64,000 nucleotides of DNA from an uncultured Candidatus Saccharibacteria bacterium (GCA_964503715.1 CAZDAD010000002.1:5639-69638), one strand, 5' to 3'. Shown: positions 19,687 through 25,449, counted from the stretch's first letter. Made by a program: numbers and translations. Notes: generated by a model from the sequence alone, not told the origin.

Positions 19687-20970
19687 ATGAAGGGTTTTCC
19701 AGAAGATTTTTTGTGGGGCGCGAGTACTGCGGCCTATCAGGTAGAGGGTGGTAATCATACGCAGTGGACTGAATGGGAACAAAAAACTGCTGAGCAGCGA
19801 GCTCAAACTGCTGAGCAGCGCTATAAACACCTTAGCGTCTGGCCAAGTATAAGGGCCCAGGCCGAAGACCCAAGCAACTACCTATGCTCGACCGCTGTTG
19901 ACCACTACAATCGCTACAAAGAGGATTTTGACACGCTCAAGGGGCTAAACCTTAACTCTTTTAGATTTGGTATTGAGTGGGCACGACTACAGCCCAATCA
20001 GGGTGAATGGGACAACAAAGAAATTGAACACTACCGTCAGTACATAGCCGAGCTCAAACAGCGTGGCATCGAGCCTATCTTAAATATTTGGCACTGGACC
20101 ATGCCGACTTGGTTTACGGACATGGGAGCCTTTGAGAGGCGTGAAAATATCAAATATCTCACAGCTTTTGTCGAGAAGGTCATTGATGAATACGGCGATG
20201 AATTAAAATACGTGATTACTCTGAACGAACCCAACTCATACGCTTTTATAGGATATTTGCAGGGAATGTGGCCGCCACATCAAACGAACCCCCTACTCTT
20301 TCGTAGGGTGTACAAGAACTTGATGTGCGCCCATAAAGAGGCTTACCGTATCATCAAAAATTATGCTCCACATGTGCAGGTTGGTATTGCTCAGAATATC
20401 GAATGGAGTCAGCCGCTCAGGAACACACCTTGGCACAAGTTGGTCGCACATACAACCAAATATATTTGGGGCTGGTGGTTTTTGGATAAGATCAAGAATT
20501 ATCAGGATTTTGTCGGCGTCAACTACTATATGGCTAATTTCTACAACTGGCGTGGACAGCAAAAGAATCCCAAGGATCCTCGCAGTGACTTGGGCTGGTA
20601 CATGGATCCTAATTGTCTAGAGTTTGTTATCGAACAAGCTGCCGACAGATACAAAAAGCCCATTATTGTTACTGAAAACGGTGTTGCCGAAGCGGCCGTG
20701 CCTGATGAAGCTCGCCAGTGGTGGCTTGAGGAAACTATCGGTGCCATGTCCCGTGCAATCGAGTCAGGAGTGGAACTCAAAGGCTACATGCACTGGAGCC
20801 TGCTAGATAATTTTGAGTGGGCTGAGGGCTTTTGGCCGAAGTTTGGTCTAGTGGCTGTCGATCGAGCCACAATGCAGCGGACAGTCAAGCCTAGTGCCAA
20901 TTGGCTTGCTAGCAAACTAGGCGAACAATACAGTACAGACTTGGAAGACGAAACTAAGTCGACTACTTGA
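19687..20970 (+). CDS. glycoside hydrolase family 1 beta-glucosidase
   Basis: Starts MKGFPEDFLWGASTAAYQVEGG. The acid/base motif is TLNEPN and the nucleophile motif is ITENGVA. The upstream extension to 19543 has no GH1 counterpart. Confidence 0.85.
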   Translation: MKGFPEDFLWGASTAAYQVEGGNHTQWTEWEQKTAEQRAQTAEQRYKHLSVWPSIRAQAEDPSNYLCSTAVDHYNRYKEDFDTLKGLNLNSFRFGIEWARLQPNQGEWDNKEIEHYRQYIAELKQRGIEPILNIWHWTMPTWFTDMGAFERRENIKYLTAFVEKVIDEYGDELKYVITLNEPNSYAFIGYLQGMWPPHQTNPLLFRRVYKNLMCAHKEAYRIIKNYAPHVQVGIAQNIEWSQPLRNTPWHKLVAHTTKYIWGWWFLDKIKNYQDFVGVNYYMANFYNWRGQQKNPKDPRSDLGWYMDPNCLEFVIEQAADRYKKPIIVTENGVAEAAVPDEARQWWLEETIGAMSRAIESGVELKGYMHWSLLDNFEWAEGFWPKFGLVAVDRATMQRTVKPSANWLASKLGEQYSTDLEDETKSTT

Positions 20971-21955
20971 TAGAAATTTGCTCGATAGGAGTCTTTGAGA
21001 AGTTCCAGTAGTCGATTGGTTCACCCTTTAGATAGGACTTCACGGCGCTGTTAAGCACCCTAGCCCTAAATTGTCTAAAGGCCATTTTGTCCTTTGGCCA
21101 AGATGGGTCAACTCCTTCCCAATCGGATACTGCCCAGGCACTCTTGATCAGCAAAAACTCTTCTAGGTATTTGCTTGGCCTTTCTAGCCCTGCCTTAGCG
21201 GCAATGTCGTCAATCACTTTGTCGCTGTGGGCAATCTGGTCACGAGTAGTCTTATAGGCGACTGGATACCTGGATTCGTAGTCCGTGAACCATCCCCCAC
21301 CCCATCGAGCTGAAATCAGGGTGTCATAACCAATCGGGCCAAAGCCATATAGCTCAAAATCAATTATCCCACGCTCCATCACATTGTATGGGTTAAGGTC
21401 GTGTTGGATTATTCCCATCGGCGCGTCTTTGAGCCTCTCAACTGCAAGATTGAGCGCTTTTTGGTACTCCTTGTCGCTGTAGCCAAAGTAAGAGTAATTC
21501 CATTCGACCATGTTCTCTGTGAACAAAGTGTTTATAAACTCGGTTGGCGATATGCTGCTCTTGTTCTCTGCTCGAGTCTGGGCATCTGCGTACTTTGACA
21601 TAACACCCAAGTAGTCACCAAAAGTCTCATCAGACACCTTGCCGTCACAGGTGTATTCACGAGCAAATTTCTTATGAAATGGCTCCGTCCCTACCGATGT
21701 TTCTGTAAAAAACCACTTCCCATCAGGCAATTCACCATAGCCTAGAACTTCGGGTACAGGAAAACCTCGCCTAGACAGAGACATTGTATGATTTTGCTCT
21801 AGTAGAGCTATTTCTTTCGGCCCAATGCGACCGTATTTTTGGTTGTCCAGAGACACTGCTACCACGCATTCTTTGCGCAGACGCGGCTTAATCTCAACGA
21901 ATTGCTCTCCGCCCAGATTCCATGTCTTTATCGCTGACTTCTCTGGCTGCTTCAT
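20963..21955 (-). CDS. aminoglycoside-phosphotransferase-fold (APH/choline-kinase-like) kinase, last gene of the azole-RiPP-like block
   Basis: Brenner-type catalytic motif IIQHDLNPYNVM followed by IIDFE (metal-binding Asp). 330 aa. It lies 58 nt downstream of the SagB-like gene on the same strand. Confidence 0.65.
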   Translation of the reverse strand: MKQPEKSAIKTWNLGGEQFVEIKPRLRKECVVAVSLDNQKYGRIGPKEIALLEQNHTMSLSRRGFPVPEVLGYGELPDGKWFFTETSVGTEPFHKKFAREYTCDGKVSDETFGDYLGVMSKYADAQTRAENKSSISPTEFINTLFTENMVEWNYSYFGYSDKEYQKALNLAVERLKDAPMGIIQHDLNPYNVMERGIIDFELYGFGPIGYDTLISARWGGGWFTDYESRYPVAYKTTRDQIAHSDKVIDDIAAKAGLERPSKYLEEFLLIKSAWAVSDWEGVDPSWPKDKMAFRQFRARVLNSAVKSYLKGEPIDYWNFSKTPIEQISIK

Positions 21956-22013
21956 ACTTTTAAAGTATAAGTATAATATCGCTCAAGCGCCACCGTAATG
22001 TGCCAAAATAAAA

Positions 22014-24001: not shown

Positions 24002-24656
24002 TGGCTGTTGGTCGTATAACTAACCCAGCACCTGCGTTGTCTGATGCACCTGACTGGCCTGGCTCTGATACCTCTTCATCGACATAGTCTTTTGCGATTC
24101 GTTTGTGATACCAAACCGATATCCAGCCTACGATTATTGGTATGGATATCAAGTAGATGATTCCACCAACACCAGTAAAAACCAATGGAGCTACAAGTAA
24201 TGCTTCTCCAATTACTGCGACTGCAATAAGCCCAGTTATCTGGACTGCTCTCATTAGCGGATACTCTATCTTGACACTTGAATAAAGAAACCACAGGGTT
24301 AACAGGGGCACAATGAACACTAGTGGTATCAAATATGCTAGGCCTGCATCGCTACAGGAGTTGAGCGGCTGAGTAATGTCAGTTATGCATCCGCCAAGAG
24401 CAATGTTTATTATCCAATACCCCATATATACTAGGACTGCCACAATCGGTACGAATAGTGCAGCAAGCACCGTCAGTAGGTGGCGGTTTTTTACCTGATG
24501 GAGCTCACCTTCTTTGCCAATTTTTTGGGCCAAGAGCGAAGATGTCGATATCGTTGTTGCCAGACAACAGCAGCAACAGCAACACGAAGAACAGGTGGGC
24601 GTAGCTACAGCGCTAGAAAGTCTATCTTTATCAAACTGAGTCGGCAGCGCTTTCAT
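23937..24656 (-). CDS. four-TM membrane protein whose N-terminus is a streptolysin-S-like leader plus poly-Cys/Ser/Thr core
   Basis: Begins MKALPTQFDKDRLSSAVATPTCSSCCCCCCCLATTISTSS, then a basic linker, four hydrophobic helices and an acidic/Pro-rich tail. It starts 1 nt after the C-protein stop codon and overlaps the ycaO start by 65 nt. Confidence 0.7.
   Translation of the reverse strand: MKALPTQFDKDRLSSAVATPTCSSCCCCCCCLATTISTSSLLAQKIGKEGELHQVKNRHLLTVLAALFVPIVAVLVYMGYWIINIALGGCITDITQPLNSCSDAGLAYLIPLVFIVPLLTLWFLYSSVKIEYPLMRAVQITGLIAVAVIGEALLVAPLVFTGVGGIIYLISIPIIVGWISVWYHKRIAKDYVDEEVSEPGQSGASDNAGAGLVIRPTASENIQHDDDTPQPTPPTTSGQ
24537..24656 (-). other. putative leader (aa 1-20) plus heterocyclisable core (aa 21-40) segment of the 23937..24656 ORF
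   Basis: Eight Cys, seven of them contiguous at 24564..24593 with mixed TGT/TGC codons, and nine Ser/Thr within 20 residues. There is no in-frame stop before the TM domain. Confidence 0.55.
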
Positions 24657-24657
24657 A

Positions 24658-25449
24658 CTACAACCATGGTAATGCTAATACTCCAGTGCCGTCAATCTCG
24701 TTTACTGTGCAGACTGGACATAAAGGCACCTTTAATAGCTGGTTCTTTGCAATTTTTCTGTCTTCTAGGTTCCAACTAACAGTAGAATTACACAGGCTAG
24801 TGTCATTATTGGCAATTCTGCGGAGCTCAATCTTGACTAACTCCGAGGCCACTTCGATCAGTTCGTCAGTCGCTCGCGGCTTTGTTGGTGGCTGCTCGTC
24901 TCCCCACCTTTTGGTAATTCTTCCTTGGAGACATGCAATGCATGCTGTCTCCCCAGGAAACACAAGCGGACCTACAGATATTGTGTTTCTGTATGCTACA
25001 TCAACAAATAGATGAGGCACTTTTATGTCAATGTAATCAATTTTTTCGAGTAGATCAGATAAAGTGCTAGTTGTTCTGATCAGCACTAATAAATTTGCTT
25101 TACTGGAGTCCGAAATCGGTCCGAGATTAAGCTTGTTGGGGTCGCCGATAACCGATATAAGTAGCTTTGGCTCCTTGTGCAGAACTGGGACAATAACCTC
25201 GGCGGCGACCAACTCTTCGAATACTGGCTGCTCCTGAGCGGGCACATTAGACCGCAAAAAATCTTTACCTGACTTCAGTGATGCCAGGAATGACTCCCTA
25301 GAGTCAGACAATCCGACTTCATATATAGCATCTGCCCCGCCCGATACAATCAGTGAGTTATTATTTTGTCTTATCTTCCAACCTGGAGATAGCTTAAATT
25401 TCGTTGGAGTTCCCTGCTTTGTCATAACAATGTCTTTAAGTATACACAT
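24658..25449 (-). CDS. TOMM C-protein-like (leader-peptide-binding / E1-like cyclodehydratase partner), short form
   Basis: Paired CxxC motifs (ACIACLQGR and PLCPVC) and the N-terminal pattern FKLSPGWKIRQNNNSLIVSGG recall the ocin-ThiF-like/SagC cyclodehydratase family. An alternative ATG exists at 25425. Confidence 0.65.
   Translation of the reverse strand: MCILKDIVMTKQGTPTKFKLSPGWKIRQNNNSLIVSGGADAIYEVGLSDSRESFLASLKSGKDFLRSNVPAQEQPVFEELVAAEVIVPVLHKEPKLLISVIGDPNKLNLGPISDSSKANLLVLIRTTSTLSDLLEKIDYIDIKVPHLFVDVAYRNTISVGPLVFPGETACIACLQGRITKRWGDEQPPTKPRATDELIEVASELVKIELRRIANNDTSLCNSTVSWNLEDRKIAKNQLLKVPLCPVCTVNEIDGTGVLALPWL

Follow-up and report, generated by a model that had tools for sequence, protein, structure and literature searches.

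The window analysed here is a stretch of 64,000 nucleotides (nt) from an uncultured Candidatus Saccharibacteria bacterium (GCA_964503715.1 CAZDAD010000002.1:5639-69638), and its minus strand carries a compact set of genes for a putative azole-forming machinery of the RiPP (ribosomally synthesised, post-translationally modified peptide) type, together with a gene for a cysteine-rich membrane protein. In order, these are a C-like open reading frame (ORF; 24658-25449, minus strand, 263 amino acids (aa), with the likely true start at 25425), gene A for the Cys-rich membrane protein and probable substrate (23937-24656, minus strand, 239 aa), the YcaO gene D (22736-24001, minus strand, 421 aa, GTG start) and the SagB-like gene B (22014-22733, minus strand, 239 aa), followed by an APH-fold kinase-like gene (20963-21955, minus strand, 330 aa). 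C and A are separated by 1 nt (TAG-t-ATG), A and D overlap by 65 nt, and B and the kinase-like gene follow after gaps of 2 nt and 58 nt respectively. A sequence-only reading of this DNA had described five co-directional, tightly packed genes, and the coordinates and all four junctions agree with the ORF listing; every motif it quoted is also found in the translations, namely GESIERY and a C-terminal PHPLG in the YcaO protein, RKSERSF, PSAGATY and KYGERG in the SagB-like protein, and paired CxxC in the C-like protein. The interpretation developed below, which we regard as probable, is that A is the substrate of C, D and B, so that the poly-Cys N-terminal tail of an integral membrane protein would be modified to azoles.

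Comparison with homologues refines two of the gene starts. The C homologues begin at the second Met (MTKQG..., 25425), and C is therefore about 255 aa long. Residues 12-45 of the YcaO protein are conserved among its homologues, with L15, R23, H24, G25 and Q31 invariant; therefore the public gene call (P0078, 376 aa, from Met46) is too short, and the true start lies upstream, at the GTG at 24001 or the ATG at 23983. Support for the long start means that the overlap of A and D is genuine. Its extent is 47-65 nt, depending on the start chosen, and the same overlap is also seen in three related loci (L006, L008 and L009).

Relatives of the locus were collected with a YcaO profile search of one genome per GTDB species. 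A scan of the genome collection with the A alignment was dominated by the CCCCCCC pattern (600 stretches, 0 confirmed), and the YcaO alignment was used instead. The resulting YcaO clade is sharply bounded, its members sharing 46-66% identity with the D of the window and the remaining proteins at most about 30% over full-length matches. It includes about ten Saccharibacteria and, from the Actinomycetota, HGW-Actinobacteria-4, Acidimicrobiia, Arachnia propionica, other Propionibacteriaceae and Pseudopropionibacterium; a Demequinaceae locus was obtained separately. C, D and B occur together in all 25 related loci (B is lost to the contig end in L011), and every one of the 25 also has one or two ORFs that open with TQFD...ATPTC[SC]2C5-7, two A copies being present in several of them (L001, L005, L013, L014 and L023). 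All-against-all clustering of the ORFs of at least 70 aa from these loci recovers D, C, B and A as the only real conserved families, the other clusters being opposite-strand shadow ORFs of the same four genes in high-GC genomes; no conserved protease, ABC transporter or exporter, or kinase appears among them. The conserved unit is a four-gene cassette, C-A-D-B, and the recurrence of this gene set in 25 independent loci is far beyond chance. Arachnia propionica has, after an intact A, a second A-like membrane ORF of 186 aa (L003, 8934-9494) without the TQFD...poly-Cys N-terminus, which may be a decayed paralogue or have a mis-called start.

More distant members of the A family are also found beside a YcaO gene, in L085 (GC 0.25, D 33% identical) and L086 (GC 0.70, D 39% identical). 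The first of these, a metagenome contig, has the gene order A-D-C (175-3045), and its A protein (P0442, 265 aa) has an extra C-terminal CxxC...CxxC tail resembling a zinc ribbon; the A family therefore extends past the Saccharibacteria and Actinomycetota, with domain variation. In the remote TOMM (thiazole/oxazole-modified microcin) loci in which a poly-Cys ORF was detected, this ORF codes for a short peptide, some 35-50 aa in length (L050, L056, L065, L069 and L078).

The fifth gene of the run fares differently. The kinase-like protein matches PF01636 with 28 bits and no sequence relatives of it were found in the PDB; by tblastn it is absent from 25 of 25 related loci, including ten or more Saccharibacteria. 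The kinase is therefore a neighbour specific to this genome and not a cassette member, and the proposal that an APH-fold kinase forms part of the operon gives way to a cassette in which only C, A, D and B are conserved. It may nevertheless be co-transcribed in this genome, since no terminator-like site was found by the scan in the 58-nt gap between B and the kinase. A related alternative would keep all five genes as one operon, with the kinase as a tailoring or regulatory enzyme and with enzymes that were shrunk by genome reduction in the candidate phyla radiation (CPR). We consider it very unlikely: the kinase follows B in the same direction after 58 nt that contain no terminator-like site, which allows for co-transcription, but its absence from all 25 related loci and the lengths of the enzymes elsewhere speak against it. 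In the high-GC Actinomycetota, which have large genomes, the homologues are of the same length (C 242-264, D 412-421 and B 238-268 aa; Arachnia, C 242, D 412-416 and B 243 aa; HGW-Actinobacteria-4, C 264, D 421 and B 260-268 aa), and C homologues in general have about 240-280 aa. Characterised enzymes are similar in size or smaller, with 272 aa in McbC, 396 aa in McbD and 206 aa in BmdC, and the McbB chains matched by Foldseek have 264-284 residues. The smallness that had been taken for a miniaturised machinery is therefore a family trait and not a consequence of genome reduction.

Of the three enzymes, C scores 43.1 bits against TIGR03882, the model for TOMM precursor leader peptide-binding proteins (cutoff 36.9), while the SagC model TIGR03603 gives 31.3 bits, far under its cutoff of 187.65. 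An AlphaFold2 (AF2) model of C built from 27 homologues (predicted local distance difference test (pLDDT) 89, predicted template modelling score 0.84) consists of strands at residues 17-46 and helices up to residue 82, an arrangement like that of a RiPP recognition element (RRE), followed by an E1-like fold. Foldseek with this model retrieves TruD (3.9e-11), LynD (1.4e-10) and McbB (6gri, 1.6e-8), then MccB and ThiF/MoeB, with a probability of 1.00 for TruD, LynD, McbB, MccB and ThiF. Invariant over 22 loci are C170, C173, C244 and C247, which from the TOMM literature we take to be the zinc site, and W24, G37, G38 and D40, presumably in the RRE. On the strength of the model, C can be confidently assigned as a two-domain protein, the N-terminal domain being of the RRE-like, leader-binding kind and the other, which has a putative four-Cys zinc site, being E1/ThiF-like.

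D matches PF02624 with 145 bits, and its best sub-model is TIGR03604 (SagD) with 162.5 bits; other YcaO models score far lower (McrA-thioamidation, a methanogenesis marker, 40 bits; generic YcaO, 30 bits), and D is therefore not grouped with the non-heterocyclising types. In the PDB, the D profile matches TruD, MusD, LynD and McbD (McbD 1.3e-4). The motifs GExIER and ELIERDA are present, with E77, E80, R81, E184, E187, R188 and D189 invariant over 20 loci, and these residues presumably bind ATP and Mg; an ATP-binding role of the YcaO acidic motifs was reportedly established by Dunbar et al. in 2014. The protein ends in ...FPNKLPHPLG, of which P417, H418, P419, L420 and G421 are invariant in the YcaO alignment. 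D is assigned from these features as a probable ATP-dependent YcaO cyclodehydratase of the SagD-like kind.

B exceeds the cutoff of the SagB model TIGR03605 (87.7 against 78.4 bits), also matches PF00881, and in the PDB finds McbC (1.1e-5) and BmdC. R63, S65, K173 and Y174 are invariant over 21 loci; we take K173-Y174 to be the catalytic Lys-Tyr motif, for which Melby et al. are said to have described a catalytic role in SagB-type proteins in 2014. B is accordingly assigned, by homology, as a putative SagB-type dehydrogenase of azolines, dependent on flavin mononucleotide (FMN). The view from the sequence-only reading that these are TOMM-type enzymes is borne out by the hidden Markov model (HMM) searches, in which C and B pass the TIGR03882 and TIGR03605 cutoffs and the SagD model is the best for D. 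A grouping of this YcaO with a non-heterocyclising clade, which would have counted against it, was not seen (40 and 30 against 162.5 bits), and the identity proposed for the C protein agrees with the likeness of its AF2 model (pLDDT 89) to TruD, LynD and McbB.

Gene A had been noted only as a Cys-rich membrane protein of the operon; its presence stands, and its likely role as the substrate had been overlooked. Neither Pfam nor NCBIfam searches give a match to A, NCBIfam having no model for it. It has 77 close homologues, and an exhaustive profile search finds 289 representative clusters (50% identity) at E<=1e-3, nearly all of which match from residue 1 and whose members mostly have 140-296 aa. 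The N-terminus follows the pattern MKALxTQFDx7VATPT-CSSCCCCCCC. Residues 1-21 (MKALPTQFDKDRLSSAVATPT; 24594-24656, minus strand) constitute a leader-like segment, reading MKALxTQFDxxRLxxAVATPT, and residues 22-31 (CSSCCCCCCC; 24564-24593, minus strand) a core-like segment of ten contiguous heterocyclisable residues, the codons of which are a mix of TGT and TGC that forms no simple DNA repeat.

These two segments are the best-conserved part of the protein. An alignment of 25 A sequences has M1, T6, Q7, F8, T19, P20, C22, C27-31, E151, Y168 and Y183 invariant. In a broad alignment of 85 sequences the mean column identity is just 16%, and the only near-invariant columns are Q7, F8, T19, P20, C22, C26-31, E151 and Y168; here C27 and C31 are invariant, and Q7, F8, T19, P20, C22, C26, C28-30, E151 and Y168 are conserved in at least 90%. 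A Cys/Ser/Thr-rich core-like segment after an N-terminal leader-like segment in a co-encoded ORF is found in 25 of 25 loci, with at least one such ORF in each.

The rest of A is a four-helix transmembrane (TM) domain at about residues 58-186 (24099-24485, minus strand), in which E151 and Y168 lie within the membrane, and beyond it an acidic P/Q-rich tail. Hydropathy places the TM spans at about residues 60-85, 105-128, 137-160 and 163-184, in agreement with the AF2 helices at 58-86, 105-127, 133-161 and 164-196 (pLDDT about 76-93). The N-terminal tail is net basic (7 K/R and 4 D/E), loop 1 has no K/R and two Cys, and loop 2 and the start of the C-terminal tail are basic. The predicted topology is N-in/C-in with the tail in the cytoplasm, and this orientation places the tail in the compartment of YcaO enzymes, where C, D and B would act. 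A search of the PDB with the A model by Foldseek gives no structural relative (best E 4.5); a known fold for the TM domain, CPBP/SagE-like or other, was dropped on this result, and a CPBP protease identity was rejected since the EExxxR and His motifs are absent by inspection.

It could be asked whether A is merely an accessory Cys-rich membrane protein, with a role in metal or redox binding, immunity or transport, and whether the true precursor is encoded elsewhere. No family annotation exists for A, metals can be bound by tracts of Cys, and distant precursors are described for some TOMM classes, such as heterocycloanthracin (PMC4603692). The conservation just described is opposed to this, the leader-like and core-like N-terminus being the most conserved part of A. 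A always lies next to D, often with translational overlap, the A-D neighbourhood is kept even where D is only 33% identical, and the copy number of A varies, as it does for precursors. There is no other Cys-run ORF in the close-clade loci, and within the window cassette the gaps of 1 nt and 2 nt and the 65-nt overlap leave no room for a separate precursor gene. An accessory role with a precursor elsewhere is, on balance, highly improbable.

With A as the substrate, modification might proceed in three steps. The RRE domain of C would bind the leader of A; D would then, with ATP, cyclodehydrate contiguous Cys and Ser residues to thiazolines and oxazolines; and the SagB-type flavoprotein B would oxidise these azolines to azoles. 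The most likely product would be a membrane-anchored protein with a rigid, hydrophobic poly-azole tail and not a released antibiotic. Neither a protease nor an exporter travels with the cassette, and there is strong purifying selection on the leader, the core and the intramembrane Glu, so that the product would most likely stay anchored in the membrane; the conserved Glu and Tyr of the protein's own TM bundle likewise favour an attached product. That the tail is never released at all, so that some ten contiguous thiazoles and oxazoles would remain on the cytoplasmic N-terminus of a membrane protein, is a more tentative proposal, to which we give somewhat less than even weight.

The alternative that bears most directly on this point is that the system makes a secreted linear azole peptide or a cytolysin of the classical kind. 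The N-terminal 45 or so residues of A would then be modified, cut off by unlinked proteases and exported as a streptolysin-S-like toxin, and the TM domain would serve only as a carrier, for membrane targeting or for immunity. The core, CSSCCCCCCC-LATTISTSS, is like the contiguous Cys run of SagA-type cytolysin cores, the best YcaO HMM of D is that of the SagD family, the end of the leader, VATPT, could be a cleavage site, and the Saccharibacteria that bear the cassette are epibionts that must perturb host envelopes. Such a route would, on the other hand, require two cleavages, one between leader and core and one between core and TM domain, and in none of the 25 loci does the cassette have a conserved ABC exporter, C39 peptidase or CPBP/SagE-like protease beside it. 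Next to the window cassette itself the neighbours are GH1, APH kinase and Fic genes, in keeping with the earlier remark that no leader protease or ABC exporter adjoins the operon. Moreover, core and leader hardly vary from phylum to phylum, which sets them apart from typical cores of antibiotics, the conserved E151 and Y168 suggest that the TM domain has a function of its own, and the tail is predicted to be cytoplasmic. Release as a secreted peptide is for these reasons judged unlikely.

Several considerations weigh against modification of A as a membrane-bound substrate. Heterocyclisation of the A tail is deduced from gene neighbourhood and sequence, and the substrates known for TOMM systems are small peptides which undergo cleavage and export; A, at 239 aa and with four TM helices, is well outside the length of less than about 100 aa that is typical of a precursor. 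A housekeeping protease or exporter may have its gene at another place in the genome. The N-in topology of A is derived from hydropathy and the positive-inside rule, and the AF2 model of the leader (residues 1-21) is of low confidence (pLDDT <50). As for the cyclodehydratase, the score of D against TIGR03604 (162.5 bits) is below the cutoff of 219.25, and D therefore represents a divergent clade of the SagD family; its C-terminus, PxPxG, is a close variant of the PxPxP of azoline-forming YcaOs and not PxPxP itself. Finally, neither a TOMM substrate that is a membrane protein nor a C-A-D-B cassette in Saccharibacteria was found described in the open-access literature, and an earlier description may exist. 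The enzymology is conventional, and the new element is probably the conserved integral-membrane substrate, in an arrangement of precursor and enzymes for which no description was found.

RiPP azole synthetases are generally seen as enzymes that produce small antibiotics and toxins for secretion. Modification of A would take YcaO chemistry beyond peptides, to membrane proteins. A tail that is never released would form a rigid, conjugated, hydrophobic rod of about 35 Å, which is about the thickness of the bilayer, and which could bend back to lie in or along the membrane and act with the intramembrane Glu and Tyr of the four-helix bundle. It would also make A the first known membrane protein with an azole modification, a post-translational modification at the protein level and not a natural product. 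Such proteins would constitute a new functional class, with a possible role in membrane perturbation, redox or metal handling, or envelope contact, and one exchanged between Saccharibacteria epibionts and the Actinomycetota. The A family spans about 289 clusters in Saccharibacteria, Actinomycetota and at least one very low-GC lineage. A substrate of this size would also account for the precursor in such clusters being overlooked in genome mining, where short ORFs are expected in the search for precursors. Saccharibacteria keep few non-essential genes, and the retention of a four-gene cassette in them suggests a role in envelope biology or in the interaction with the host.

The closest relatives of the cassette outside the Saccharibacteria are in the Actinomycetota, the phylum of the known Saccharibacteria hosts. 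In a rough neighbour-joining tree of the YcaO proteins, the high-GC HGW-Actinobacteria-4 joins the Saccharibacteria clade at its base, beside the window sequence, and Arachnia is placed with the Propionibacteriaceae in a separate clade. The YcaO of HGW-Actinobacteria-4, a metagenome-assembled genome (L005/L012, GC 0.66), has 62% identity to the D of the window and is as close to it as those of other Saccharibacteria. This pattern suggests that the cassette has probably been exchanged horizontally between Saccharibacteria and Actinomycetota.

Within the window the cassette lies in an 8.2-kb stretch that is bracketed by tRNA genes at 18295-18516 (two tRNA-Ser) and 26749-27018 (tRNA-Arg and tRNA-Ser), these four tRNAs being the only Rfam matches in the window. 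The stretch comprises two hypothetical genes, GH1, the kinase, C-A-D-B and Fic. It may be an integration hotspot or island; around it no att-like repeats were seen beyond the conserved tRNA 3′ ends, and across it no deviation in GC. Like the kinase, Fic and GH1 are absent from all 25 related loci, and all three genes are unrelated neighbours of the cassette.

The Fic/DOC-family gene, the product of which has a Fic_N domain, lies divergently to the cassette at 25430-26641 (plus strand). The Fic_N match begins at residue 63, which makes the Met at about 25502 the probable true start and leaves a divergent, AT-rich promoter region of about 52 nt. This short intergenic region between C and the probable Fic start (25450-25501) is likely to be the promoter region of the cassette. 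One promoter-like site was found in it, on the plus strand at 25452-25480, by a scan whose promoter and terminator counts over the window were near the shuffle expectation and hence uninformative. On the other side, the GH1 beta-glucosidase ORF (19543-20970, plus strand) converges on the kinase ORF with an 8-nt overlap; it has a TTG start and a hydrophobic N-terminal extension that overlaps an opposite-strand ORF, and since the Pfam match does not begin before residue 51, translation probably starts further downstream. A direct repeat of 16 nt with exactly matching units, AAACTGCTGAGCAGCG, is present at 19784-19820 in two copies with 21-nt spacing, each containing the palindrome GCTGAGCAGC, and lies within the overlapping ORFs 19153-19830 (minus strand) and 19543-20970 (plus strand).

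Further away, at 3167-14324 (minus strand), the window contains a type IV secretion locus of the Gram-positive type, in line with the T4SS-like locus named in the sequence-only reading, and the host is Saccharibacteria-like. It encodes a TraG/VirB4-like P-loop ATPase (7081-9006), a PrgI-family protein (10134-11294), a fusion of phage-tail lysozyme and C39-like peptidase (3167-4405) and large unannotated proteins of 904, 365 and 1004 aa.

Azole RiPP genes in reduced genomes have a precedent in the linear azole-containing peptide (LAP) clusters of CPR bacteria, which combine YcaO and nitroreductase genes in Microgenomates, Parcubacteria, Peregrinibacteria and Katanobacteria (Sharrar et al. 2020, mBio; PMC7298704). 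One example there has an 84-aa precursor and a peptidase, and neither a Saccharibacteria LAP nor a membrane-protein substrate is reported (PMC7298704). These clusters were counted in 93 CPR genomes, Saccharibacteria not among them (PMC7298704); the expectation that such clusters are rare in reduced genomes thus holds only in part.

Two uncharacterised classes from Actinobacteria share the phylum of the nearest relatives of the cassette. According to Cox et al. 2015 (PMC4603692), mobilisin clusters have B, C and D only, with a fused cyclodehydratase and with no precursor found, and propionisin has a discrete cyclodehydratase, a cytolysin-like D, ABC transporters, CaaX proteases and short precursors. 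The D of the window is 26% identical to the Mobiluncus mulieris YcaO (L070) and 28% to those of Rhodococcus (L054 and L071), as compared with 46-66% within its own clade, and C and D are here separate genes; identity with mobilisin was rejected. The Cutibacterium avidum YcaO is 33% identical to D over a partial match, and the Cutibacterium locus L064 yielded no poly-Cys ORF; identity with propionisin was rejected on these grounds and for the transporters, CaaX proteases and short precursors of that class.

There are also precedents for larger YcaO substrates. McrA, which is thioamidated by YcaO-TfuA, is reportedly a case of a YcaO acting on a full-size protein (PMC5589413); it differs from A in that a single thioamide is formed, without a C or B partner. 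NHLP/Nif11 TOMM precursors have a large extra domain of about 80-110 aa (PMC4603692). There the extra domain is the leader and is removed, whereas in A it is C-terminal to the core and integral to the membrane.

Overall, the machinery of the cassette is a member-like relative of the azole synthetases of the McbBCD and SagBCD types. In the microcin B17 system of E. coli, McbB unites an RRE with an E1-like scaffold that has a zinc site, the YcaO cyclodehydratase is McbD and the FMN dehydrogenase McbC, the same division of labour as is proposed here, and all three were recovered in the searches (McbB 1.6e-8 (6gri), McbD 1.3e-4 and McbC 1.1e-5), with similar sizes and an identity of about 13-15%. 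The substrates differ: McbA is a 69-aa soluble peptide that is cleaved by TldD/E and exported by McbEF, and the proposed substrate of the cassette is the N-terminus of a 239-aa protein with four TM helices, without export or immunity genes. The streptolysin S type (SagABCD-EFGHI) shares with the cassette a discrete cyclodehydratase of C and D together with SagB, and a core that is a contiguous Cys run after a leader that is about 21 aa long and ends with a motif of small residues, so that the layout of the A tail resembles that of SagA-type precursors. It differs in that the SagC (31 against 188 bits) and SagD (162 against 219 bits) cutoffs are missed here, and in that the SagE CPBP protease and the SagFGHI ABC transporter are absent from the window operon and from the conserved neighbours of the cassette. 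The proposed precursor differs as well, in that it is fused in the cassette to a membrane domain and has a leader and a core that are almost invariant between phyla.

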